A stretch of 64,000 bases of DNA from an uncultured Gemmatimonadaceae bacterium (GTDB taxonomy: Bacteria; Gemmatimonadota; Gemmatimonadetes; Gemmatimonadales; Gemmatimonadaceae): contig CAVXFN010000004.1 of NCBI GenBank assembly GCA_963761075.1, forward strand, positions 1,192,411 to 1,256,410, read 5' to 3'. Positions 7,706-54,525 of the stretch are shown piece after piece. The notes below the pieces were generated by a model, which did no database searches, was not told the origin of the DNA, and saw only the letters and a list, made by a program, of their open reading frames with translations. The translations under genes and the position numbers were made by a program. How positions within the stretch are numbered: position 1 is the first letter of the stretch; every line of letters begins with the position of its first letter.

Positions 7706-8332
7706 TCAGGGACTGACCGGCGAGTGACCGGGTAACGCCGGGGACGCCCTGAAGGTGTCCGCTTCGGGGAAGGCCTCGAGGTCCGCCCGGCTCCCCTTGG
7801 CCCGGAACGCGCCGAGCCAGTCATCGAAACCCGACTCAGTCAAGCCTCTCGAATTGTCGAGGCTGCCCGCTGCTCGCGTGGCGAGGTGATTGGCGTATTC
7901 GTTCTGCGCGTGTCCGGCGTGGCCGCGCACCCACCGCCACTCGACTCGGTGCGGTGCGGCGGCTGCCATCGCACGTTGCCAGAGCTCGAGGTTCTCGATC
8001 TCGCCGTGCTTGCGACGCCATCCGCGACGCGCCCAGTCGTGCACCCACCGCGTCATGCCGTCCACGAGATAGCGCGAATCGGTCGTGAAGCGCACCCGGC
8101 AGTGACGTCCCTTCGCGGAAAGCGCCGCGAAGGCCTCGATGACCGATTGCAACGCCATCCGGTTGTTCGTCGTCGCAGGCTCCGACACCCACAAGTCCCG
8201 GCGCACCAGCTCGCCCGAGTCCCGACGGAACTCGACAAGCACGCCTGCCCCGCCGGGGTTCTCGCCCTCCTGCCCGTTGCCAAGGCATGACTCATCGGCG
8301 AAGACCGCTATGAGGGGCGAGGTCGTCACCAC
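7706..8332 (-). CDS. rnhA: Ribonuclease HI.
   Basis: FADESCLGNGQ…GGAGVLVE…TDSRYLVDGMTRWVHDW…NEYANHLA, the RNase H DEDD-type motifs. GTG start at 8332. The 520-aa ORF 7706..9268 is run-through. Confidence 0.8.
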   Translation of the reverse strand: MVTTSPLIAVFADESCLGNGQEGENPGGAGVLVEFRRDSGELVRRDLWVSEPATTNNRMALQSVIEAFAALSAKGRHCRVRFTTDSRYLVDGMTRWVHDWARRGWRRKHGEIENLELWQRAMAAAAPHRVEWRWVRGHAGHAQNEYANHLATRAAGSLDNSRGLTESGFDDWLGAFRAKGSRADLEAFPEADTFRASPALPGHSPVSP

Positions 8333-8547
8333 GGCACGACCTCGAAGGCCTCCACCTCGTCGAGTCCGATGACGATCGGGTCGCCGGTCACCGGGTGGCG
8401 GGCCTCGATCGCCTCGCCGCCGGCGCGCATGAAGAGGCGCAGCGGAACGACGACGATTTCCCTGCGCTGTCGCCGGATGGCGATTCGCCGGTGCTCCACA
8501 ATTGCGCGTTCCAGCGCGTCGTATTCGCCGGGCCGCAACGTCGCCAT
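8326..8547 (-). CDS. Small hypothetical protein (73 aa), translationally coupled between the M20 peptidase and rnhA.
   Basis: ATG at 8547 overlaps the TGA of the upstream gene (TGATG); its 3' end overlaps the rnhA GTG start. Confidence 0.35.
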   Translation of the reverse strand: MATLRPGEYDALERAIVEHRRIAIRRQRREIVVVPLRLFMRAGGEAIEARHPVTGDPIVIGLDEVEAFEVVPW

Positions 8548-9722
8548 CAGCTGTTCCCGCACCAGCTGCGCGCCACGCCGGCCAGTACGGCTGCGGCCCG
8601 TTCGATCTCACCCGGATCGACCCACTCCTCGGCGGAGTGCGCCAAGGTGATGTCGCCCGGTCCGAAGCAGATGGCGGGGATTCCTGCCTCGTTGAGCAGG
8701 GCCGCATCCGTCCACGCCGAGAGTCCCTCCACGGGAGCCGGCTCCGCGCACGACAGGAGTGCGCGGTGAAGGCATCGCACAACCGGGGCGTCGACCGCCA
8801 CATCGCTCGGCATCTGCGAAAAGACGTGCCGCACCGAGGCCTCGAAGCCTGGAACCCGCGCGCGCACACGAGCGCAGGCGCGTTCAATCTCACGTACTGC
8901 CTCGTCGCGGTCCTCCCCAGGCAGCGTGCGCCGTTCGAGACGGAGCGTGCAGGCGTCCGGGTAGGTCGACCAGCCGAGCCCTCCCTCGATCGTGGACGCG
9001 TGCATGGAGGCGTGGCCGAGCAGCGGATGCTCCCTCCGCGCCAGCTCGCGCCGCTGCCAGTCATCGAGCTCGGCCAGCAGCAGTCCCGCGTGCGTGACGG
9101 CGTCGACGCCCAGGTCGTAGCGGCTGCCATGCGCTGCCCGGCCGTGCAGCAGGACCTCGGTCCAGACGAAGCCGCGGTGCGCTGGAACGATCGCGAGCCG
9201 CGTCGGTTCGGTGACGATCGCTGCGTCAGCGCGCACACCACTGGCGACGAGGGTCCGGGTGCCGACACTCTCGAACTCCTCGTCGACGACCGCAGCGACT
9301 ATCAGCTCGCCGACGATTCCTTCCCGGGCCGCACGCCACGCGGCGCAGCACATCGCGGCGACTCCACCCTTCATGTCGGCAGCGCCCCGCCCGTAGAGCC
9401 GGCCGTCTACGATCTGCGCGTCGAAAGGCTCGTGCACCATGCCATCCACGCCCACCACGTCGAGATGACCGTTGAACATGAGCGAGGGCGCGCCCTGCCG
9501 ACCCGCGCCGATACGGGCCACGACGTTCGGTCGCCCCGGCGAGGTCTCCTGAAGCGTCACGCGGAATCCCCAGCGGTCGAGGAGTTCGCCGAGAAATGCC
9601 GTGATGTCGCCTTCTCCCGGGGCATCAGGCACCAGTCGAGGATTCCTCGAGTCGATCGCGACGAGCGCCCTGGTGAGGGCGACTGCGTCTCCGGGGGCGA
9701 TGCTCATCGGGGTCGAGGTCAC
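8547..9722 (-). CDS. M20 family metallopeptidase (ArgE/DapE-type deacylase).
   Basis: LVAIDSRNP, GHLDVV, GRGAADMKGG and EEFESVG metal-binding blocks. GTG at 9722; alternative ATG at 9707. Confidence 0.85.
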   Translation of the reverse strand: MTSTPMSIAPGDAVALTRALVAIDSRNPRLVPDAPGEGDITAFLGELLDRWGFRVTLQETSPGRPNVVARIGAGRQGAPSLMFNGHLDVVGVDGMVHEPFDAQIVDGRLYGRGAADMKGGVAAMCCAAWRAAREGIVGELIVAAVVDEEFESVGTRTLVASGVRADAAIVTEPTRLAIVPAHRGFVWTEVLLHGRAAHGSRYDLGVDAVTHAGLLLAELDDWQRRELARREHPLLGHASMHASTIEGGLGWSTYPDACTLRLERRTLPGEDRDEAVREIERACARVRARVPGFEASVRHVFSQMPSDVAVDAPVVRCLHRALLSCAEPAPVEGLSAWTDAALLNEAGIPAICFGPGDITLAHSAEEWVDPGEIERAAAVLAGVARSWCGNS

Positions 9723-42801: not shown

Positions 42802-44753
42802 CTATTCGAGCGGTGACGTGAGCCAGTCGTACATGAAGGTGACGAGCATGACCGCGCCGACGGCGATGAAGCCGAAGGCGAGGCCCATTTTCTTGGCGTA
42901 CATGAAGGGCAGCCCGCCGAGCATGATCACGATGCCGGCCGCGACGAACAGCGGCTTGATTGTCGGGAAGGGCATCGGGATCCCGAGTTCCTTCGCCGTG
43001 GCGCGTCGCGACTCGACGTGTGCCGGGGCGACGTCGGCCTCGTGGGCGCCCGCGGTCGTGACGTGTTCGCCGGTGCGGACCTCGGCCTCGCTCCATCCCG
43101 CCTTCGAGTGCGGGATGTCGGCCATGCGCTCGGGATGCGTGAGGTCCCACATCGGATAGCGCGAGGTGACCATCGGGATCTGCGCGAAGTTGTACTCCGG
43201 CGGTGGCGACGGGATCGACCACTCGAGCGTCGGCGCATCCCACGGATTGTCCCCGCACGGCTCGCCGTGCCGCTTCGAGCGGAAGAAGTTGAAGAAGAAG
43301 ATCAGGAACGACGGCACGAAGAGGAATGCGCCGAGCGACGACAGCATGTTGAAGGTGTCCCACCCCTGGCCGGCGTCGTACGTGTAGATGCGCCGCGGCA
43401 TGCCGAGCATGCCGGAGAAGTGCATCGGGAAGAACGTCATGTTGAACGCGATGAAGTTCAGCCAGAAGTGCCAGGACCCGAGCTTCTCGCTCATCAGCCG
43501 GCCGTACATCTTCGGGAAATAGTGGTAGATGCCCGCGAAGATGCCCATGATGGCGCCGCCGTAGAGCACGTAGTGGAAGTGGGCGACGATGTAGTAGGTG
43601 TCAGTCTGCTGCAGGTCCGATGGCGGCGACGAGTGGGTGATGCCGGAGATGCCGCCGATGGTGAACATCGCGATGAGCGCAATCGCGAACTTCATCGAGG
43701 TGGTGAACCGGATCGACCCCCCCACATGGTGAAGATCCAGTTGAAGATCTTCACACCGGTGGGGATGGCGATGAGCATCGTCGTCAGGCCGAAGACGGTG
43801 TCGGCGATGGGGCCCATGCCGACGGCGAACATGTGGTGCGCCCAGACGCCGAAGCCGAGGAAGCCGATGAGGATGCCCGAGTAGGCCATCACCGGATAAC
43901 CGAACAGCGGCTTGCGCGAATTCGTCGGCAGGACCTCGGAGACGAGGCCGAAGGCCGGGAGGATCAGGATGTAGACCTCGGGATGCCCGAAGATCCAGAA
44001 CAGGTGCTGCCAGAGGAGCGGGTCGGCACCGGCGGCGATCGTGTAGAAGTTGGTGCCGAAGAACCGGTCGAACTGCATGAAGAACAGCGCGACGGTGATG
44101 ACCGGGAAGGCCAGGATGATCAGCCACTGCACCACGAACGACATCCACGTGAACATCGGCATGCGCATCAGGTTCATGCCGGGGGCGCGCAGGTTGATGA
44201 TGGTGGTGGCGAAGTTGAAGGCAGCGGCCAGCGACGAGATGCCGAGGATCTGGATGCCGAGCACCCAGAAGTTCAGGTTCTGCCCCGGCGAGTAGGCGTC
44301 GGTGGTGAGGGGTGTGTAGGCGAACCAGCCGCCGTTGGGCGCGGCGTTGAAGAGAATCGGCAGCGTGATGAACAGGCCACCGAAGAGGTAGACCCAGTAG
44401 CTGAACGCGTTGAGCCGCGGGAACGCGACGTCGCGCGCGCCGATCTGCAGCGGTATCAGGAAGTTGAAGAACGCGGCGGAGAGCGGCATGATGACGAGGA
44501 AGACCATCGTCGTGCCGTGCATCGTGAAGAGCTGGTTGAACGTCTCTGCCGAGACAGCCCCCATGTTCGGGCGCATCAGCTGGTAGCGCATGATGACCGC
44601 CTCCATGCCGCCCACACAGAGGAAGAAGAGGGCGGTGTGGAGGTACAGGAGGCCGATCCGCTTGTGATCGACGGTGGTCAGCCACTCCATGATGCCGGAG
44701 CGATTGCCGCTCGCGGCGCCGGCGTAGGTGGGGGCTGCTGCTACGGTGGCCAT
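42802..44753 (-). pseudogene. coxA: Cytochrome c oxidase subunit I, split by a -1 frameshift in a C7/G7 homopolymer; probably functional in vivo (sequence error).
   Basis: N-terminal 353 aa in ORF 43692..44753 (…WAHHMFAVGMG…IFNWIFTMWGG); it continues in ORF 42802..44685 (SIRFTTSMKFA…HFHYVL…). Seven C at 43728..43734 where eight would restore MWGGSIRF. Confidence 0.85.
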
Positions 44754-46254: not shown

Positions 46255-46635
46255 TCAGGAGGGGGGCGGATTCGTCGCGGCGTCGTGAACGCTGTGGATC
46301 TCCCGCACACGCGTGATCGTCGCCTCGATCTGCGCGCGAATCTGCCCCACGCACTCCCGCAGGGCCCGCACCCTCGCCTGTTCGCTGCCTCCCCGCGTGG
46401 TGACGAGGATCATGCTCGTCACCTGGTCCGAGATCGACGCGAACTGGAGCTTGAGCAGTCCCACCAGCGGATTGGCTGCGCGCTGGAGCTGCTGCCGGAA
46501 CTGTCCGGTGTCGGTCTGGGCGCGCGCCGCAATTGCCATGCGCTCGACGATGCCGTGGACCCGCTGCAGCTGGCTGAGCGCTTCGTCCAGGGTGGCCAGC
46601 TTGAGCTGGCCGGCGCTGTCGATGTGCGTCTTCAA
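46255..46635 (-). CDS. Hypothetical helical protein (126 aa) upstream of the cox operon.
   Basis: Clean GC3 bias; ATG start; no family recognised. Confidence 0.5.
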   Translation of the reverse strand: MKTHIDSAGQLKLATLDEALSQLQRVHGIVERMAIAARAQTDTGQFRQQLQRAANPLVGLLKLQFASISDQVTSMILVTTRGGSEQARVRALRECVGQIRAQIEATITRVREIHSVHDAATNPPPS

Positions 46636-46692: not shown

Positions 46693-48546
46693 TCAGATCA
46701 TGGAAGAGGGGTTCAGCAGTTCGTCGAGGCGCTTTCGCGTCACCAGCTTCTGTTCAAGGACGAGTTCGTACACGCCCCGTCCCGTCTCCAACGCGCTCTT
46801 GGCCACCTCGGTGGCCTTGTGGTACCCGATTTCCGGCAGCAGCGCGGTCACGAGCCCGATCGAGTGCTCCACGAAATGACGCATGCGATCGGGGTTCGGC
46901 GTGATGCCGTCGACGCAGCGGGTACGCAGCACCGCACAGGCGTTCCGCAGGGCGTCGATGCTGCGCAGGAGCCGGAAGGCGATGAGGGGCTCGAACGCAT
47001 TGAGCTGCAGCTGTCCCGCCTCGGCGGCCAGCGTGACCGTCACGTCGCCGCCAATCACGTCGAAGCAGACCTGGTTCACGACCTCGGGAATGACAGGATT
47101 CACCTTGCCGGGCATGATCGACGAGCCTGGCTGCATGGCGGGGAGGTTGATCTCGCCGAGGCCGGCTCGCGGCCCGGAACTCAGCAGGCGCAGGTCGTTG
47201 CAGATCTTGGAGAGCTTGACGGCGCACCGCTTGAGCACGCCGGACAGCTGCACGAACACCCCGGTGTCCGACGTGGCTTCGATGAGGTCGGGTGATGTGA
47301 CGAGGTCGAGTCGCGTGATCTCGGAGAGGTGGCGCCGCACCAGCTCGGGGTAGCCTGCGGCGGCGGTGATCCCGGTGCCGATGGCGGTCGCTCCCATGTT
47401 GATCTCGCGCACGAGCGACAGCGCCTCCCCGAGCCTGTCGACGTCCTCCAGCAGTGTGTGCCCGAACGCCGCGAATTCCTGGCCGAGCGTCATCGGGACC
47501 GCATCCTGGAGCTGTGTGCGCCCGAGCTTGACGTGCGGGGCGAACTCATGCCCCTTCGCCACGAAGGCCTCCGCCAGCTGGCGCATCGCCCCGCGCAGGC
47601 TCTCGATCTCGCCATGCAGGCCGATGCGCACGGCTGTGGGATAGACGTCGTTGGTGGACTGGCTGAGGTTGACGTGGTTGTTGGGGTGCAGCCGCTCGTA
47701 GTTGCCGCGTGACTCCCCCAGCAGCTCGAGGGCCCGATTGGCGATGACCTCGTTGGCATTCATGTTCGTCGAGGTGCCGGCCCCGCCCTGGATCATGTCC
47801 ACGAGGAAATGTTCGTGGTGCCGTCCCTGGCGGATCTCGACGGCGGCCTTGACGATGGCGTCGCAGAGCGGTCGGTCGAGCAGCCCGAGGTCGGCGTTGG
47901 CCAGCGCGGCCGCCTGCTTCACGGCCGCGAGCGCCTCGATGAGCGCGGGAAACTCGCGCAGCACCACGCCGGTGATCGGGAAGTTCTCGAGAGCGCGGAG
48001 GGTCTGGATCCCGTAGAGCGCGTCGTCGGGCACGTCGCGTGCGCCGAGCAGGTCGGACTCCGGCCGCGTGCGGGCGCCACCGAAGCCGAGCACGCGACCG
48101 CGCCCCACAATGGTGGCGTCGGTGGCGGCGAGCCGTTGCGAGATCGCCCGCGCCGCGCGCCCGACGAGCGCCGCGTAGAGCGAGGCGAAGTCCTTCATCA
48201 TCTCTCGCACGCGCTCGCGGCTGAGGACATAGGCCTCGGTGCGCTGCACCGTACGGGCGCTGGTGCCGTGGGCGGTCTCGTCGAGGAGGATCCCTTCACC
48301 GACGGCGTCGCCGGCGCCCAGCGTGATGAGGCGTACCGGTCGTCCGTTCACGCTCTTCTCGACCACGACCGCCCCGCTCACGAGGATCGCAGCGAACTCC
48401 CGTGCTCCGCCTTCCTCGAAGAGGAGGTGGTCGCTCGCCCACTCGACGGGCGTGACCATGCGGGCGAGCTGATGGATGGCGGTGTCGGTGACACCCTGGA
48501 GGAAGCGGGTGGCGCGCAGGCGTTCGCGAATGGCGGCGGTTGTCAT
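46693..48546 (-). CDS. Aspartate ammonia-lyase (fumarate-lyase superfamily) with an N-terminal cyclic-nucleotide-binding domain.
   Basis: N-terminal ~140 aa CAP-type cNMP domain (…LITLGAGDAVGEGILLDETAHGTSARTV…). Then an aspartase core with QSTNDVYPTA and signature GSSIMPGKVNPVIPE. Confidence 0.85.
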   Translation of the reverse strand: MTTAAIRERLRATRFLQGVTDTAIHQLARMVTPVEWASDHLLFEEGGAREFAAILVSGAVVVEKSVNGRPVRLITLGAGDAVGEGILLDETAHGTSARTVQRTEAYVLSRERVREMMKDFASLYAALVGRAARAISQRLAATDATIVGRGRVLGFGGARTRPESDLLGARDVPDDALYGIQTLRALENFPITGVVLREFPALIEALAAVKQAAALANADLGLLDRPLCDAIVKAAVEIRQGRHHEHFLVDMIQGGAGTSTNMNANEVIANRALELLGESRGNYERLHPNNHVNLSQSTNDVYPTAVRIGLHGEIESLRGAMRQLAEAFVAKGHEFAPHVKLGRTQLQDAVPMTLGQEFAAFGHTLLEDVDRLGEALSLVREINMGATAIGTGITAAAGYPELVRRHLSEITRLDLVTSPDLIEATSDTGVFVQLSGVLKRCAVKLSKICNDLRLLSSGPRAGLGEINLPAMQPGSSIMPGKVNPVIPEVVNQVCFDVIGGDVTVTLAAEAGQLQLNAFEPLIAFRLLRSIDALRNACAVLRTRCVDGITPNPDRMRHFVEHSIGLVTALLPEIGYHKATEVAKSALETGRGVYELVLEQKLVTRKRLDELLNPSSMI

Positions 48547-48658: not shown

Positions 48659-50239
48659 TCAGCGCGCCGGCGTCACCAGGCGCTCGCACCATCCGAGCAG
48701 GCCATCGACGGCGAGCGCCAGCAGCGCCGCGGGAATCGCCCCGGAGAGGATCATGCGGGAGTCGGCCAGCGTGAGGCCGGCGACGATCGGGTCGCCGAGT
48801 CCCCCGGCGCCGATGAACGCCGCCAGGGTGGCGGTGCCGACGTTGATCACGCCGGCGGTGCGCACCCCGGCCATGACCGTCGGCGCGGCCAGCGGCAGGC
48901 GCACGTGACGCAGGACCTGCCAGGGCGTCATGCCTAACGCCGACGCCGCCGCCACCGCCGGCGGGTCGGCATCGCGCACGCCCGAGTAGGTGTTGCGCAG
49001 GATCGGATAGAGGGAGTACAGGAACAGCGCCACCAGCGCCGGGCGCACCCCGATGCCGAGCAGCGGGATCATGAAGGCCAGCAGCGCGATCCCCGGGAGG
49101 GTCTGCAGCACGCCTACGGCGCGAATCGTTGCCTCGGCGCCCGCGCGAAAGCGCTCCAGCGCCAGTCCGGCGGGGACGGCGACGAGGATCGCCGCCGCGA
49201 GCGACACGCTCACCAGCAGCAGGTGCCGGAGCGTCATCCTGGCAATGTCGCCGCGCCGATCGAGGAGGTAGCGCCAGAGAGGGACGCCGCTGCCGCCGGT
49301 TGCCGGCGCGCCCGACGGCGCCGCCGGAGTTCCCGCAAGTCCGAGCGAGCGCAGCAGGTCGCGGGCGACCGTCGCCACCGGGGCGCCTCCGACCTCGACC
49401 TGCTCGTTCAGGGCGCGCATCCTGGCGACGTCGAGACGGCCGCTGAGTTCCGTCAGCACGGCGACCGCGCCCGGGGTGCGCTGCTGCAGCTCGGCGCCCA
49501 CGAGCGCCGCGGCCTCGTAGGGCGGGAAGAAGTGGTGGTCGTCGGCAAGCACCGCCAGCCCGTATCGTGCGATGAGGCCGTCGGTCGAGTACCCGTCGAT
49601 CACGTCCACCTCGCCGGCGACGAGCGCGCGGTACTTCACGGCCGGCAGCAGCGACCGTACCGCAGCGAGGTGCAGGCCGTAGGCGCGTTCCAGGCCGGGC
49701 AGGCCGTCGGGGCGGCCGATGAAGTCCGGGGTGAATCCCCCGCGGAGCCGCGCGCCGGCCGCCGCCAGGTCGCCGATCGACCGCAGGCCTAACGAATCGG
49801 CCGTGGCGCGGCGGACGGCGATGGCATAGGTGTTTTCGAAGCCGAGGGGCGGGAGCCAGCGGACGCCGTAGCGCTGCCGGAAGGCCAGCGACACGCGGTC
49901 GAACACCGTGGCCGGATCCCCGACCGTGCCCGCACCGAGGATCGCGAGGAGTCCGGTGCCGGTGTACTCCGGGTAGACGTCGATGTCGCCCGAACGCAGC
50001 GCCCCGAACGCGATCTCCGTGGACCCCAACCCGGGGCGACGGTCCACCGAGTAGCCGCGCGACTCGAGCAGCTGCGCGAACAGCTCGGCCAGCAGGTACG
50101 ACTCGGCGAACGGCTTGGACGCGATGACCACCGGTCGCGTCGGCGCCTCCGTGGCTGGCGTGCGGCTGGGCGCGCCCTGGGCCAGCGCGAGCGTCGGCCC
50201 GAGCAGGGCGAGCCATGCCGCTGTCGTCAGGCGCGACAT
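48659..50239 (-). CDS. Betaine/choline-family ABC transporter, fused substrate-binding domain (N-terminal) + permease (C-terminal).
   Basis: Signal peptide; OpuAC-type SBD (…DIDVYPEYTGTGLL…) followed by 5-6 TM helices with an EAA-like loop (…LGMTPWQVLRHVRLP…). Confidence 0.85.
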   Translation of the reverse strand: MSRLTTAAWLALLGPTLALAQGAPSRTPATEAPTRPVVIASKPFAESYLLAELFAQLLESRGYSVDRRPGLGSTEIAFGALRSGDIDVYPEYTGTGLLAILGAGTVGDPATVFDRVSLAFRQRYGVRWLPPLGFENTYAIAVRRATADSLGLRSIGDLAAAGARLRGGFTPDFIGRPDGLPGLERAYGLHLAAVRSLLPAVKYRALVAGEVDVIDGYSTDGLIARYGLAVLADDHHFFPPYEAAALVGAELQQRTPGAVAVLTELSGRLDVARMRALNEQVEVGGAPVATVARDLLRSLGLAGTPAAPSGAPATGGSGVPLWRYLLDRRGDIARMTLRHLLLVSVSLAAAILVAVPAGLALERFRAGAEATIRAVGVLQTLPGIALLAFMIPLLGIGVRPALVALFLYSLYPILRNTYSGVRDADPPAVAAASALGMTPWQVLRHVRLPLAAPTVMAGVRTAGVINVGTATLAAFIGAGGLGDPIVAGLTLADSRMILSGAIPAALLALAVDGLLGWCERLVTPAR

Positions 50240-50242
50240 CGA

Positions 50243-50995
50243 TCAGGACGGTCCGGACCGGACGCCGGCGCGTCGCAGCAGCTCGACGACATACGGCGGG
50301 GCGGGTGACTCCCGCAGCGACGCCGGCGTGGCGAGCTGCTCGATCCGGCCGGCGCGCATGACGGCGATGTCGTCGGCGAGCAGCAGGGCCTCGCGGACGT
50401 CGTGCGTCACCAGCACCGCGGTTACGGCGAGGCGGCGCCGAAGGTCCGCGAACGCCTGTTGCAGCTCGGCGCGGGTGATGGCGTCGAGCGCACCAAACGG
50501 CTCATCAAGCAGGACGACGTCCGGATGCGCGGCGAGGGCGCGCGCGATGGCCGCACGCTGTCGCTGGCCCCCCGACAGCTCGCGCGGCCATCGATCGGCG
50601 AAGCGATCGGGGTCGAGTCCCACGAGCACCAGCGCCTCGCGCGCCAGCGCACCGGGGTCGGGCAGGCCGCGCAGCCACGGGACGAGGGTGACGTTTCGAA
50701 GGACCCGCCAGTGCGGAAGGAGGCCCCCGTCCTGTGGTACGTAGCCGATGCGCCGGCGCAGGGTGACGCCGTCGATCTCGCGCACGTCGCGCCCGTCGAC
50801 GAGCACCCGTCCCTCGTCGGGCGTGACGAGGCCGTTGAAGCAGCGCAGCAGGGTGGTCTTGCCGGAGCCGCTCTCGCCGATCAGTGCCAGACAGTGGCCG
50901 CGCGCCACGGCCAGGGAGACTCCGTCGACCGCGGTCGTCGCCGTAAAGCGCCGGGAGACCGCCTCGACGCGCAGGGCGACGTCGGGCTCGCTCAC
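50243..50995 (-). CDS. ABC transporter ATP-binding protein (OpuCA/ProV-like, no CBS tail).
   Basis: Walker A GESGSGKTT, signature LSGGQRQR, Walker B VVLLDEP, H-loop VTHD. GTG at 50995 overlaps the egtA stop (GTGA). Confidence 0.8.
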   Translation of the reverse strand: MSEPDVALRVEAVSRRFTATTAVDGVSLAVARGHCLALIGESGSGKTTLLRCFNGLVTPDEGRVLVDGRDVREIDGVTLRRRIGYVPQDGGLLPHWRVLRNVTLVPWLRGLPDPGALAREALVLVGLDPDRFADRWPRELSGGQRQRAAIARALAAHPDVVLLDEPFGALDAITRAELQQAFADLRRRLAVTAVLVTHDVREALLLADDIAVMRAGRIEQLATPASLRESPAPPYVVELLRRAGVRSGPS

Positions 50996-52242
50996 CCCGG
51001 GATGGCGACGGGAGCGTCGGCGGCGGGCGACCGCCCACGGCGCGTGTAGCGCTCGAAGAACTCCCACGCGACGGCGAGCGATGGCTCGTCGATCACGGAA
51101 CGCCCCGCCGACTCGCCGGCGCGCAAGGCAAGCCCATAGAGCTCGGCGGCGCGGCGGGCGATCGCCGGGTCGGCGAGCCCGCACCGACCGGCACGCTCCA
51201 GCAGGTCCGCATCGGGCGCCCCGGTGATCTCTCCCGCGGCGCCGGCCGCGGCCGGCGCACCGATGATCCCGGCCAGGAACGCCAGCGGCGCCGCGTACCA
51301 GGCGGGTGCCAGCGCGTCGGTCGAGCGGACCTCGAAATAGCCGCGCGGCCGCACCTCCGGAAAGAGGGTCGAGAGGTGCGACTCCCAGTCCACCGCGCCG
51401 ACTCGTCCGTCGGCGAGGAGCGTGCCGAACGGCGCGAACGGGGGCGACTCGCCATCGTGCAGCACGTCCGGCGCGCCGAGCGCGAAGTCGGCGTAGGCGC
51501 CCACGGGATCGGTCGCGTCCCACGCGAGACCGGTGCGCCGCGGATCGAGGGCGCCCCAGACGAAGCGGCGCAGGCTCTGGTGCCCGGAAAGCTCACCGGC
51601 ATATCGCGGCGAGTTGGCGAAGATCGCCACCAGGTACGGCGCCAGCGCGTTCAGCAGCGTCCATCGCTCGAGCGGACGGGGACCGGCATCGAGACAGACC
51701 TGGATCGAGGCGGTTTGCCGCATCATCCGTGCGCCGTGCGGACCGATGGTCGCGAAATGCGCGTCCATGCGGCGGTACCGCTCCCCGGTCAGCTGCAGTG
51801 GCACGTCGTCGATGGGGTTGAGCGGGTCGATGCCCGCCGCCACCAGCGCGATGCCGGCGTCGTTGAGTGGTGCGTCGATGGCGCCGACGGTCTCGTGCAG
51901 GTCCGCAACGAGGGCACCGACGGACGTGCGTGGTGGTGCAGCGTACTCCACCTGGCCGCCGGGCTCGAAGGTGAGCCGTCCCCCGGTGGGCGTGATGAAT
52001 TCCGGCACGCCCGCCTTGGCGGAGCGCTGCTCGGTCCATCGGGCCTCACGCGCGACTTCGCGGAATACCGGGAGGGTCGACGGGCGGTCGGCGACGTCGA
52101 TGGGGGCGGGGCGCCCCGTCGCGCGCTCGAGTGCGAGGAACTCCACTTCGGCGCCGATGCGGGACCCGAGGTCAGGGGCCGACGGCGCGAATGCGACGCG
52201 GGCCAGGTGTTCGCGGAGACGGTCCGTGTCGCGCGAGATCAT
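50992..52242 (-). CDS. egtA: Glutamate--cysteine ligase family 2 protein (EgtA-like gamma-glutamylcysteine synthetase).
   Basis: GCS2 hallmark RIGAEVEF and overall carboxylate-amine ligase architecture. ATGA overlap with egtD. Confidence 0.65.
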   Translation of the reverse strand: MISRDTDRLREHLARVAFAPSAPDLGSRIGAEVEFLALERATGRPAPIDVADRPSTLPVFREVAREARWTEQRSAKAGVPEFITPTGGRLTFEPGGQVEYAAPPRTSVGALVADLHETVGAIDAPLNDAGIALVAAGIDPLNPIDDVPLQLTGERYRRMDAHFATIGPHGARMMRQTASIQVCLDAGPRPLERWTLLNALAPYLVAIFANSPRYAGELSGHQSLRRFVWGALDPRRTGLAWDATDPVGAYADFALGAPDVLHDGESPPFAPFGTLLADGRVGAVDWESHLSTLFPEVRPRGYFEVRSTDALAPAWYAAPLAFLAGIIGAPAAAGAAGEITGAPDADLLERAGRCGLADPAIARRAAELYGLALRAGESAGRSVIDEPSLAVAWEFFERYTRRGRSPAADAPVAIPG

Positions 52243-53216
52243 GCGACGGTGTCTCCGGCCGGGGCGGCCACCAGCAGCGCGTACTGGTCGTGCGGATCGA
52301 CGCGCCACGCCTGGGCGACGAGCCCGGCCGCGGAGAGCATGCGTTCCATCTGCGGGCGGTCGTACTTGCAGCAGATCTCGGTGCGGATCGTCTCGCCGTC
52401 CCGCATCACGACAGCGCCGATGTCTGGTACGGACACCCGCTGGGCCCCGCGCGAGGCCAGGTGCATCTCGATGCGGTGATGGGCCCACGACCAGCGCGCC
52501 CGGTGCTCGAATCGCGCGAGGTCGAAGCCCGCGCCCAGCTCCCTGTTCAGCACCCGGAGCATGTTGAGGTTGAAGTCGGCAGTGACCCCGGCGGCGTCGT
52601 TGTACGCACGCTCGATTCGCGACACCGGCTTGGTGCGCAGGTCGGCGCCGAGCAGCAGCCTGTCGATGGGGCGCATGGCGTCGCATACCGATCGCAGGAT
52701 GGCGGTGGCGTCGTCCTCGCGGAAATTGCCGATGGTGCTGCCGAGGAAGGCGAAGACCGCCGGTCCGTCGGCGGGAAGCGTGACGTCAATGCGCTCGGTG
52801 AAGTCGCCGATGACCGGCTCCACGGCGAGCCAGGGGAGGTCGGCGCGCAGCCGCGCCGCGCTCTGGTCGAGGAATTCCGCGCTGACGTCGATCGGCAGGT
52901 AGCGATGGCCGCTGCCGGCCGCGCGCATTGCGCGGAGGATGATCCGGGTCTTCTCCCCGCTGCCGGCGCCCAGCTCGACGAGCGACGTCGGGGCGAGTTC
53001 GCGCAGGAGCGACGGCATCCAGGCGCGGAGGGTGCGGCGCTCGGCGCGGGTGAGGTAGTACTCGGGGAGCCGGGTGATGGCCTCGAAGAGCAGCGACCCG
53101 CGGTGGTCGTAGAAGTACTTCGAGGGCAGCTCCTTCTGCGGGCGCGACAGTCCCCAGCGCACGTCGCGCAGCATCGCGTTCTGGCGCGGCAGGGCGAGCG
53201 GGCTGGTGCTAGTCAT
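52239..53216 (-). CDS. egtD: L-histidine N-alpha-methyltransferase (hercynine synthase).
   Basis: EgtD-family N-terminus KYFYDHRGSLLFEAITRLPEYYLTRAE and SAM-binding LVELGAGSGEKT. It starts 2 nt after the egtB stop. Confidence 0.8.
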   Translation of the reverse strand: MTSTSPLALPRQNAMLRDVRWGLSRPQKELPSKYFYDHRGSLLFEAITRLPEYYLTRAERRTLRAWMPSLLRELAPTSLVELGAGSGEKTRIILRAMRAAGSGHRYLPIDVSAEFLDQSAARLRADLPWLAVEPVIGDFTERIDVTLPADGPAVFAFLGSTIGNFREDDATAILRSVCDAMRPIDRLLLGADLRTKPVSRIERAYNDAAGVTADFNLNMLRVLNRELGAGFDLARFEHRARWSWAHHRIEMHLASRGAQRVSVPDIGAVVMRDGETIRTEICCKYDRPQMERMLSAAGLVAQAWRVDPHDQYALLVAAPAGDTVA

Positions 53217-54525
53217 CGCGGGCGCAGCGGAAGCCGCTGAAGATCTGGCGGCGGATTGGGTAGTCCCAGTTGCGGAACGTGTTCCGGATGGCGCCGGGCC
53301 TGGTGGCCCACGAGCCGCCGCGGAGCACCTTGTACTCACCGCCATGGAAGACGGATGAGTACTCGTCGTACGGAAACGCCTCGAACCCCGGATAGGGCAG
53401 AAAGTCGCTGGCCGTCCACTCCCACAGGTCCCCGATCATGCCGTAGCAGCCTAACGCGGAGACGTTTTCCGGGTAGGCGCCGACGGGGGCGGTGTCGAAC
53501 GCCAGCTGGTCGATGTTGGCGCGGTCCGGCGTGGCCGGCGGTTCGCCCCACGGATAGGCGCGCGCCGTCCCGCTGGCGGGGTCCCAGGACGCGGCCGCTT
53601 CCCACTCCGCCTCGGTGGGGAGTCGCTTGCCGGCCCAGGCCGCCCAGGCGCTCGCCTCATGGAAGCAGACATGACCGACGGGGCGCTCCGGGTCGACCGG
53701 GCGGACCCGGTCCATCACGCGCTGCCGCCACTCGTTGCCGTCGCGCACCCAGTACTGCGGCGCCACGGCCCCCGATTCCCGGCGCCAGCGCCACCCCGCT
53801 TCTGTCCACAGTTCGGCGCGCTCGTAGCCGCCGTCCTCCATGAACGCGAGGTACCCGGCGTTGCGCACGGGCGCGACGTCGATCCAGAACGGCGGGAGCG
53901 TGCGCCGGTGGCGGGGGCGCTCGTTGTCGTAGGCGGCGCGCCTGTCGGTGGTGCCGATCGTGACCTCGCCGCCGGGGAAGCGGACCATTGCACCGGCGTC
54001 GACGTGGAGCGCCGGGGCGGGCAGGGCGCGACGGCCCGGCGGGGCATACGGGGCCCCGCGCTTGAGTTGCAGCGTCTGCAAGATCGTCTCGTCGTGCTGG
54101 TACTCGTGTTGCAGCACCATCTCGACGACGTACCCGTCGCGGACGAGCGGATTTGGATCCGACAGGTCGAGTCCCTCCACGCGCTGCATGACGCGGCCGC
54201 GGATCTCCTGCATGCGGGCCAGGCATTCCTCGCGCGTCGGGTAGACCAGCTCGCCGCGCACGCGACGCGGATTCTCGAATGGATTGTAGGTCCCCGGCAT
54301 CTCGACGAACCGGATTTCGCCGTCGAGGTTGTGGGTGAGCCAGAGTTCCTCAAAGTGGGCGATGTGACCGAGGTCCCAGAGGATCGGGCTCATGAGCGGG
54401 TCGTGTTGCAACCGCAGGTCCGCGTCGGAGACCGGCGCGACGAGCTGGAGCGTGCGCTCGCGCGCCTCGGTGAGGCGTGCGAGCAGCGATTCGAGGTCCG
54501 GGCGCACGGGCACGGAGGTCGTCAT
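53209..54525 (-). CDS. egtB: Ergothioneine biosynthesis sulfoxide synthase EgtB (DinB_2 + FGE-sulfatase domains).
   Basis: DinB-like N-domain with His-rich iron site (HIAHFEELW…HEYQHDE); C-terminal FGE-type domain (GDLWEWTAS…RGGSWA). Confidence 0.85.
   Translation of the reverse strand: MTTSVPVRPDLESLLARLTEARERTLQLVAPVSDADLRLQHDPLMSPILWDLGHIAHFEELWLTHNLDGEIRFVEMPGTYNPFENPRRVRGELVYPTREECLARMQEIRGRVMQRVEGLDLSDPNPLVRDGYVVEMVLQHEYQHDETILQTLQLKRGAPYAPPGRRALPAPALHVDAGAMVRFPGGEVTIGTTDRRAAYDNERPRHRRTLPPFWIDVAPVRNAGYLAFMEDGGYERAELWTEAGWRWRRESGAVAPQYWVRDGNEWRQRVMDRVRPVDPERPVGHVCFHEASAWAAWAGKRLPTEAEWEAAASWDPASGTARAYPWGEPPATPDRANIDQLAFDTAPVGAYPENVSALGCYGMIGDLWEWTASDFLPYPGFEAFPYDEYSSVFHGGEYKVLRGGSWATRPGAIRNTFRNWDYPIRRQIFSGFRCARDD

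Follow-up and report, generated by a model that had tools for sequence, protein, structure and literature searches.

An aspartase fused to a CNB-fold domain with a non-canonical ligand cassette in Gemmatimonadota and Ignavibacteriota

Aspartase stands where amino-acid catabolism, the TCA cycle, and the release of ammonium meet, and the question raised by this locus is what a domain of the cyclic nucleotide-binding (CNB) fold might be sensing at the N-terminus of such an enzyme. The gene lies at 46693..48546 on the minus strand of the window (the whole 64,000-nucleotide stretch that was analysed), and its ORF and three Pfam domains identify the 617-residue product as a CNB-domain/aspartase fusion. 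A sequence-only reading of the window had proposed that a cyclic nucleotide acts through this domain as a second messenger to control aspartate deamination.

The ORF has exactly this span, with an ATG start and a stop codon at 46693-46695, and a protein 100 % identical to its product is already on record (4.22-Mb contig). The start codon holds up: the ATG is the first start past the upstream stop, 112 nt from the end of the preceding gene, and the N-terminus is matched by 122 full-length homologues, 91 of which have Met at position 1. Furthermore, the N-domain is in frame with the lyase in 80 of 80 related genome loci, a result that does not bear out a true start farther downstream. These loci were found with A2, a five-sequence alignment of the N-domain adopted because A1, a 12-sequence alignment across phyla, was too diverse for a locus scan, and the set is biased towards Gemmatimonadota. 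The Pfam scan yielded the three domains that had been claimed (cNMP_binding, Lyase_1, and FumaraseC_C). It could be argued that two separate genes, one for a small CNB protein and one for an aspartase, were joined by mis-assembly or by a wrong start, and on some long-read metagenome contigs (L081 and L082) two ORFs are indeed called for the gene. However, these splits are frameshifts within the lyase, away from the domain boundary, and single ORFs of 605-669 residues, with three domains each, are present in 240 independent clusters as well as in the 80 genome loci. Judged by these sequences, such an artefact is effectively refuted already, and its probability is negligible.

The lyase part (residues 159-617; 46696..48072, minus strand) has the class II fumarase/aspartase fold and, by its NF008909 and PDB matches, is a complete aspartase. 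It opens with the aspartase N-terminal strand, R-x-E-x-DLLG, and carries the GRTQLQDAVPMTLGQEF motif (47473-47523, minus strand), the SQSTNDVYPTA motif (residues 295-305; 47632-47664, minus strand), and the SS-loop GSSIMPGKVNP (residues 474-484; 47095-47127, minus strand), which fits the signature GSSxMPxKxN. In Pfam, Lyase_1 (PF00206) covers residues 169-499 with 306.5 bits and FumaraseC_C (PF10415) residues 565-617 with 73.4 bits. Among the NCBIfam models, the protein passes NF008909 'aspartate ammonia-lyase' with 715 bits (cutoff 510), falls slightly short of the aspA equivalog TIGR00839 (658 vs a cutoff of 681), and reaches 457 and 394 with the fumC models, far under their cutoffs of 665 and 840. 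In addition, solved aspartases outscore fumarases as PDB matches of this part (6wng, 541 bits; 1jsw, 501; 1j3u, 500; top fumarase, 368). The aspartase assignment of the sequence-only reading, together with both motifs that it quoted, is thus upheld, and the gene is predicted to encode a catalytically complete aspartate ammonia-lyase (L-aspartate <-> fumarate + NH4+). AspA of E. coli (1jsw), AspB of Bacillus sp. YM55-1 (1j3u/3r6v), and 6wng align end to end with residues 159-617, and the solved aspartases share the SS-loop, QSTND, and GRTQLQDAVPMTLGQEF motifs with the fusion. Unlike the fusion, however, all of the aligned chains are without an N-terminal extension; they start 5 to 22 residues from the R-x-E-x-DLLG strand, the point at which the linker of the fusion ends.

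The extension itself (residues 1-142; 48121..48546, minus strand) is a CNB-fold domain of the CAP-effector type, built of N-terminal helices, an eight-stranded beta-barrel, and a long C-helix that runs from residue 121 to 145-154. The barrel lies between an N-terminal helix and the B/C helices, as is characteristic of the CNB superfamily, and cNMP_binding (PF00027) matches residues 35-118 with 43.6 bits (gathering cutoff 27.5; E 2.8e-11) over profile positions 3-87 of 89. Pfam detects neither HTH_Crp_2 nor any other HTH in the fusion; unlike in CRP/FNR factors, the C-helix leads through a linker to Lyase_1. This linker, DATIVGRGRVLGFGGA (residues 143-158; 48073..48120, minus strand), is kept within Gemmatimonadota, and D143, A144, T145, G148, G150, and R151 are invariant in the 122 homologues. 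Its pLDDT in the full-length model is 41-54, and neither its conformation nor the inter-domain geometry is confidently predicted. The best sequence and structure matches of the N-domain are bona fide cNMP binders, namely M. tuberculosis CRP (E 3.5e-10), PKG, GlxR, and Bd1971. All of its close relatives in an exhaustive search (E < ~1e-22) are fragments of aspartase fusions, and the domain appears to be a dedicated subfamily of the CNB/CAP-effector fold.

The fusion had been described as uncommon, and this does not hold. Of the best clusters around the window protein, 120 of 120 have the same architecture, as do 120 of the 120 best around an Ignavibacteriota member. For Gemmatimonadota, the N-domain was detected in at least 297 genomes at species level, and Holophagales, Kapaibacteriota, and Tenuifilaceae contribute fragments as well. 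The exhaustive search of representatives gave mostly fragments because partial genes serve as the 50 %-cluster representatives, and an N-domain profile search yielded short or frameshifted calls only; intact fusions beyond Gemmatimonadota were seen with a full-length query rebuilt from two frameshifted halves. Judged by this distribution, the fusion is the usual form of aspartase in Gemmatimonadota and Ignavibacteriota. Over the 80 loci, the N-domain has a median identity of 62 % and the lyase one of 78 %; from one phylum to the other, identity is 24 % and 63 %, respectively. Such conservation indicates that the N-domain is under strong purifying selection and clearly points to a functional domain. 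That the fusion is uncharacterised, as had also been claimed, agrees with full-text literature searches, in which no description of a CNB-aspartase fusion was found.

The neighbours of the gene are likewise as had been reported, a small ORF of no known family followed by caa3 oxidase genes (ORF list and Pfam). The small ORF, of 126 residues (46255..46635, minus strand), lies between the fusion gene and COX2, 57 nt downstream of the former and on the same strand, and has no match in Pfam or NCBIfam. By tblastn, 64 of the 80 Gemmatimonadota loci have it (35-61 % identity), and in every one of the 64 but L019 it follows the fusion gene on the same strand. Then come COX2, which has a cytochrome c domain, COX1, COX3, and COX4, and COX2 is present in 62 of the 80 loci. 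This synteny is strong in Gemmatimonadota and missing from the contigs of other lineages, L081 and L082; the caa3 oxidase was rejected as a general functional partner, and the linkage is confined to Gemmatimonadota. The OpuAC transporter upstream of the fusion gene is no conserved neighbour (8 of 80 loci), and a scan for promoters and terminators was uninformative, its single terminator-like hit, which lies within COX2 on the minus strand, comparing with a chance expectation of 0.8.

The 'phosphate-binding cassette' of the N-domain, VGEGILLDETAHGTSART (residues 82-99; 48250..48303, minus strand), is non-canonical when it is aligned, without gaps, with M. tuberculosis CRP and with PKG. At the position of the canonical Arg (PKA Arg209 / CRP Arg82) there is His93 (48268-48270, minus strand), and the placement of His93-Gly94 is without gaps against M. 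tuberculosis CRP and both CNB-A and CNB-B of PKG I-beta. His occupies this position in 210 of 211 and 120 of 120 fusions (330/331), the single exception being a frameshifted call, and none of the 331 fusion sequences has Arg there; among the unfused CNB proteins in the same match list, 69 have Arg and 5 have His. Gly94 stands at the canonical Ser/Thr/Ala position, which is Gly or Ser in the fusions, and H93, G94, and T95 are invariant in the 122 homologues. The cassette Gly83-Glu84 is retained, being invariant in the same homologues, and across phyla E84 is invariant and G83 nearly so. In canonical cAMP/cGMP-binding CNB domains, the Glu of this pair touches the ribose 2'-OH.

Other positions add to this picture. 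PKA Arg209, which binds the cAMP phosphate, co-evolves with Gly169 (PMC2246266); the position equivalent to Gly169 holds Gly in the window protein (Gly46) and in 168 of 194 scored fusions. Divergent clades have Asn, His, or Ser there, and 118 of 120 Ignavibacteriota proteins have Asn. Arg49 (48400..48402, minus strand), in the beta2-beta3 loop, is aligned in the PKG alignment with the second Gly of GDxGD (PKA Gly172 equivalent); it is invariant in N-domain alignments A1, A2, and A3, at least 90 % kept in A4 and A5, and Arg in 118 of 120 Ignavibacteriota proteins. The C-helix motif RAARAISQRL (residues 130-139; 48130..48159, minus strand), which includes I135-S136-x-R138, is ISRRM or ISRRI in 118 of the 120 and aligns near the base-contacting segment of cAMP-bound CRP, the M. 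tuberculosis CRP alignment extending to residue 134. Its Arg138 (48133-48135, minus strand) is invariant in A1 to A5. Between Gemmatimonadota and Ignavibacteriota, F43, G58, E84, H93, and R138 are invariant, and R49 and G83 are nearly so. Taken together, the alignments show a cassette that is non-canonical in having His93 for Arg, a variable Gly169-equivalent, and two extra arginines, the near-invariant R49 and the invariant R138. Overall, the sequence-only reading is partly supported, and its idea of cyclic-nucleotide control is not supported in the form proposed. The absence of a conserved phosphate-binding cassette, which that reading had named as a refutation, is borne out by half: the Gly-Glu is kept, and the phosphate-binding Arg has become an invariant His, so that cAMP or cGMP should not be taken for granted as the ligand.

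These results have led to the hypothesis, to which we give somewhat better than even confidence, that the N-domain is a built-in allosteric sensor of the aspartase whose ligand is bound outside the canonical cAMP/cGMP mode. In this model, G83-E84, H93, R49, and R138 would line one pocket, R49 coming from the beta2-beta3 loop that lies beneath the cassette, and R138 from the C-helix 'lid'; the ligand would be small and probably anionic, perhaps a carboxylate- or phosphate-bearing metabolite. Its binding would reposition the C-helix, which the conserved linker of ~16 residues ties to the lyase at the first beta-strand of its N-terminal domain, and the movement would switch the tetrameric enzyme between states of low and high activity. 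In mycobacterial Pat and in Bd1971 of Bdellovibrio, the catalytic domain is gated by a CNB domain in this way. The more specific proposal, that the domain is a receptor for a ligand other than cAMP or cGMP held by a His93/Arg49/Arg138 triad, is plausible and is put forward a little short of even confidence. Candidates include anionic metabolites from the C/N node, for example a dicarboxylate or an amino acid (2-oxoglutarate, aspartate, and fumarate among them), nucleosides or nucleotides that are not cyclic, and cofactors ligated by His. On this reading, no aspartase before it would have been gated by a ligand, and its N-domain would define a new class of ligand specificity within the CNB fold, present in the standard aspartase of two bacterial phyla.

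Other explanations have to be weighed against this sensor. The domain could be a genuine cAMP/cGMP receptor through which a second messenger directly switches aspartate deamination. Its top matches are, after all, bona fide cNMP binders, the Gly83-Glu84 of the cassette is kept, and a His is capable of a hydrogen bond to phosphate; moreover, Arg49 could serve as a relocated phosphate ligand, since in PKA the beta2-beta3 loop packs on the cassette Arg (PMC2246266). However, 330 of 330 intact fusions lack the Arg by which the cyclic phosphate is neutralised, the Ser/Thr/Ala next to it is replaced by Gly or Ser, and the co-evolving Gly169-equivalent is not conserved in the divergent clades. Furthermore, the studied families without this Arg have either a different ligand or no ligand at all (PMC2246266, PMC10959531). 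Families whose cassette is non-canonical and which bind other ligands include CprK and CooA, which holds haem via a His at the cassette Arg position (PMC2246266), and in trypanosome PKA-R, which has lost the cassette Arg, nucleosides are bound instead of cAMP (PMC10959531). Direct control by cAMP or cGMP is consequently regarded as unlikely, although it deserves more weight than the readings that follow.

The domain might instead bind no ligand at all and act, like the 'CNB-homology' modules of KCNH channels, in oligomerisation, autoinhibition, or protein docking, with the conserved linker possibly folded back to serve as an intrinsic ligand. This is rather improbable: the invariance across phyla falls on the polar or charged, pocket-aligned E84, H93, R49, and R138 rather than on a hydrophobic interface, and no docking of the linker is predicted (pLDDT 41-54). 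More speculative is a CooA-like haem sensor of gas or redox state, which would couple aspartate catabolism to respiration with His93 as the axial ligand. The His of CooA at the position analogous to Arg209 does ligate haem (PMC2246266), invariance extends both to His93 and to two arginines that could grip the haem propionates, and the synteny with the caa3 oxidase operon in Gemmatimonadota would fit. The other haem ligands of CooA, Pro2 and Cys75, appear to be absent from the fusion. We consider a haem sensor very unlikely. Thus, a sensor with a ligand held outside the canonical mode is the preferred reading.

Soil, sediment, and sludge are rich in Gemmatimonadota and Ignavibacteriota, in which the usual aspartase seems to come with a sensor of its own; the flux of carbon and nitrogen at the aspartase step is therefore probably gated post-translationally. 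The fusion N-domains make up a large and sharply bounded CNB subfamily, in which the phosphate Arg has become His and two new arginines are fixed, and provide a tractable case for the retuning of the CNB fold to new ligands. They also urge caution, as the annotation 'cyclic nucleotide-binding domain' alone is poor proof of cAMP/cGMP signalling.

A fumarase/aspartase-fold tetrameric lyase is not among the CNB fusion partners in a census of 2007 (PMC2246266). The fusion has no specific sequence kinship to the CNB proteins with other ligands, i.e., trypanosomatid PKA-R (nucleosides; 6hyi, 6ftf), CooA (haem), NtcA (2-oxoglutarate; 3la2), and CprK. Trypanosome PKA-R has Glu in place of Ala202, where the fusion has Gly85, and NtcA, unlike the fusion, keeps the cassette Arg (PMC2246266). 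The nearest solved sequence to the N-domain is M. tuberculosis CRP (Rv3676; 3d0s, 3i54), with ~26 % identity over ~145 residues, a Foldseek E of 6e-12, a TM of 0.69-0.70, and a cassette of equal length aligned without gaps; however, CRP has a helix-turn-helix DNA-binding domain and the fusion has none, and the cassette reads RTSSA in CRP and HGTSA in the fusion. Finally, CNB-gated enzymes are found in bacteria in Pat (Rv0998 / MSMEG_5458; 4ava, 4orf) and the EAL phosphodiesterase Bd1971 (6hq2-6hq7), both of which bind cAMP via a canonical, Arg-containing cassette, whereas in the fusion that Arg is His.

The fusion gene is a 617-aa ORF with an ATG start, recovered by ORF calling on the minus strand (46693..48546), and the Pfam matches to its product, cNMP_binding (PF00027, residues 35-118, 43.6 bits where 27.5 is the cutoff), Lyase_1 (residues 169-499, 306.5 bits) and FumaraseC_C (residues 565-617, 73.4 bits), all lie above their curated thresholds. 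Together with the lyase motifs SQSTNDVYPTA (residues 295-305) and GSSIMPGKVNP, the SS-loop (residues 474-484), these matches bear out the architecture proposed in the sequence-only reading, a cyclic-nucleotide-binding (CNB) domain joined to an aspartase. Because the ATG, 112 nt downstream of the preceding gene, has no usable start codon between it and the in-frame stop before it, and the N-terminus is common to homologues, a true start downstream of the N-domain (residues 1-142) is refuted. Among NCBIfam models, NF008909, which represents the aspartate ammonia-lyase subfamily, gives 715 bits (cutoff 510) and the aspA equivalog TIGR00839 falls marginally short (658 against 681), with class II fumarase models far under their own cutoffs. 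Furthermore, the solved aspartase structures 6wng, 1jsw and 1j3u match residues 159-617 at 541, 501 and 500 bits, whereas solved fumarases reach at most 368 bits.

The fusion had also been called uncommon, and this does not hold. Of the clusters nearest to the window protein, the best 120 (75-100 % identity) all carry the same three Pfam domains, the named ones being 'aspartate ammonia-lyase [Gemmatimonadaceae bacterium]', and a profile of the N-domain only, run on one genome per species, found relatives in at least 297 genomes, every one of the best 80 being from Gemmatimonadota or an unclassified MAG. With just the N-domain as query, an exhaustive search across 1.84 billion cluster representatives turned up 95 matches with E <= 1e-10. 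Without exception, the nearest of them are fragments continuing into the aspartase N-terminal strand (R-x-E-H-DLLG-x-R-x-VP), some having an N-domain identity of merely 25-33 %, and the source names of the divergent fragments include Holophagales, Ignavibacteriaceae, Candidatus Kapaibacteriota and Tenuifilaceae. Divergent calls were often partial or frameshifted, so a full-length query was rebuilt from two halves on one contig; it retrieved 120 clusters of intact ~619-aa proteins (83-94 % identity), all with the fusion architecture, of Ignavibacterium and Ignavibacteriota origin and on contigs of up to 3.7 Mb. Given the cluster, genome-scan and Ignavibacteriota results, the CNB-aspartase fusion is the usual form of aspartase in at least two phyla. 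It is real, strongly conserved, not rare and undescribed in the searchable literature; since full-text searches found no published description of it, the earlier label 'uncharacterised' appears correct. One 210-aa sequence from the N-domain search (P0147) was seen by eye to join an N-domain with an H-R-T cassette directly to a tail resembling the aspartase C-terminus (ending GYETAIEIAREALDAGKDVAELAKERQLVK); it could be either a deletion variant or an artefact of assembly.

The neighbours named in the sequence-only reading are present downstream on the same strand: a 126-aa ORF (46255..46635, minus) between the fusion gene and COX2, and then a caa3-type oxidase set consisting of COX2 with a cytochrome c domain, COX1, COX3 and COX4. 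This order is kept in Gemmatimonadota, with the small ORF at 64 of 80 loci and COX2 at 62 of 80, the gaps falling mostly at contig ends; in about half of these loci an extra gene of ~352 aa lies between the fusion and the small ORF (for example at 7964-9022, plus strand, in L009), which is absent from the window. However, on two metagenome contigs from other lineages (L081 and L082), the neighbours of the fusion gene are unrelated. Consequently, the oxidase linkage is a lineage-specific gene order, and the caa3 oxidase was rejected as a part of the fusion system. The 126-aa ORF has no Pfam or NCBIfam match; its homologues at the 64 loci are 35-61 % identical, it is apparently soluble and helix-rich as judged from sequence, and an accessory role in the oxidase operon is possible. 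COX1 is split in the window into two overlapping ORFs (42802-44753, minus), one ending in KIFNWIFTMWGGRSGSPPR before its stop and the other continuing GGSIRFTTSMKF. The frame shifts at a G7 homopolymer (43717-43723, minus strand), where an eighth G restores it, and because the two halves share one frame in 43 of 43 related loci, the split in the window copy is due either to a sequencing indel or to a recent frameshift. On L081 (1579-5269 and 8001-9925), a single metagenome contig from another lineage, the frameshifted fusion gene has bacterial-microcompartment shell genes (BMC, EutN_CcmL), an aldehyde dehydrogenase fragment and an ORF faintly matching multihaem cytochrome families (Cytochrom_c3_2, Cytochrome_C7) within a few kb.

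Upstream of the fusion gene lies an ergothioneine-biosynthesis-like cluster with adjoining transporter genes (48659-54525, all minus strand): a fused OpuAC substrate-binding/permease gene (48659-50239), an ABC ATPase (within 50243-51523), a GCS2/EgtA-like gene (within 50992-52686), a Methyltransf_33/EgtD-like gene (52239-53345) and a DinB_2+FGE-sulfatase/EgtB-like gene (53209-54525). Just 8 of the 80 loci have the OpuAC-permease and ATPase pair. The layout of these transporter genes resembles that of the EgtUV ergothioneine transporter; thus, genes for ergothioneine synthesis and uptake may stand side by side here. The ATPase and GCS2 ORFs overlap by ~530 nt, and since Pfam matches only from residue 200 of the former and residue 216 of the latter, both proteins probably begin well inside the ORFs as called from the earliest start codon. 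Such over-extension of ORFs is typical of high-GC genomes.

The N-domain has a genuine CNB fold, and selection acts on it. Residues 1-148 were modelled by AlphaFold2 from a 54-sequence alignment with pLDDT >90 at most positions (mean 88.6), giving the expected beta-barrel and long C-helix, and the best Foldseek match of the N-domain model is M. tuberculosis CRP (E 6e-12, TM 0.69), with PKG, GlxR and PKA-R also among the best. Across 76 Gemmatimonadota loci, identity to the window protein is 54-80 % (median 62 %) in the N-domain and 70-86 % (median 78 %) in the lyase; between Gemmatimonadota and Ignavibacteriota the values are 24 % and 63 %.

In canonical CNB domains, the phosphate-binding cassette is FGE[LIV]AL[LIMV]X[PV]R209[ANQV], whose Arg209 binds the cyclic phosphate; Gly169, in the beta2-beta3 loop, co-evolves with this Arg (PMC2246266). 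The cassette of the window protein (VGEGILLDETAHGTSART) aligns without gaps to that of M. tuberculosis CRP (FGELSIFDPGPRTSSATT) and to both CNB domains of PKG I-beta, and in these alignments the conservation looked for in the sequence-only reading is found in part: Gly83-Glu84 are retained, but His93 replaces the Arg and Gly94 the following Ser/Thr/Ala. None of H93, G94 and T95 varies among 122 full-length homologues. Of 211 fusion sequences in which fewer than 110 residues separate a CNB cassette from the aspartase N-terminal motif that follows it, 194 carried the strict His-containing pattern; 16 of the 17 misses still read H[SQ]T, mostly PHST, and the last (P0145) is a frameshifted call. 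All 120 Ignavibacteriota proteins have the cassette GEGA[LI]MD[DN]SPHSTSA, and no fusion in either set has Arg at the His93 position, which in long unfused CNB proteins from the same match list is Arg 69 times and His 5 times. At the position equivalent to Gly169 the window protein has Gly46, but Asn stands there in 118 of the 120 Ignavibacteriota proteins, and further divergent clades have Asn, His or Ser.

Invariant or near-invariant across phyla are F43, R49, G58, G83, E84, L87, H93 and R138, along with R161 and E163 of the aspartase. In the PKG alignment, R49 aligns with the second Gly of GDxGD, the canonical motif of the beta2-beta3 loop, and R138 lies within the C-helix motif I-S-x-R-[LM], near the segment that reaches the base of cAMP in CRP. 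The cross-phylum invariants, besides the structural F43 and G58, thus map to positions aligned with the ligand pocket, whose chemistry has changed. Beside the loss of the cassette Arg stand two points in favor of canonical cNMP control of the aspartase through the N-domain, namely that, overall, true cNMP binders are the closest matches to the domain and that R49 could serve as a relocated phosphate-binding arginine; we regard such control as doubtful.

In published precedents, changes at the Arg209 position retune or abolish cyclic-nucleotide binding (PMC2246266, PMC10959531). CprK, with Asn there, binds a chlorophenol, PDZ-GEF has Met or His, and CooA ligates haem through a His at a structurally analogous position (PMC2246266); in trypanosomatid PKA-R, where polar residues replace the Arg, inosine or guanosine is bound with nanomolar affinity and the protein is insensitive to cAMP (PMC10959531). 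A ligand-free CNB-homology module, given the polar or charged nature of the invariant pocket-aligned residues and a linker that is not predicted to dock, is improbable, and a CooA-like haem role, despite the shared His, very improbable. The reading toward which we lean is a dedicated allosteric sensor whose ligand would be bound otherwise than cAMP and cGMP are in canonical domains, in a pocket on which R49, H93, R138 and Glu84 would converge; with two invariant arginines, a His and a Glu in place, this ligand is suggested to be anionic. Ligand binding would move the C-helix, which a conserved linker of ~16 residues tethers to the first lyase beta-strand, and the shift would then modulate the activity of the tetramer, as the comparison with Pat (Rv0998) and Bd1971, two enzymes gated by CNB domains, suggests. 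A full-length monomer model, of the kind proposed for viewing the domain interface, was built (pLDDT 78.1, pTM 0.65), but because its linker has a pLDDT of 41-54, it yields no trustworthy interface.

Pat and Bd1971 are both detectable relatives, and the fusion belongs to a known kind, the CNB-domain-regulated enzyme. What is new within that kind is that the cassette Arg has been replaced throughout by His, with invariant arginines that compensate, and that an aspartase serves as the output domain.
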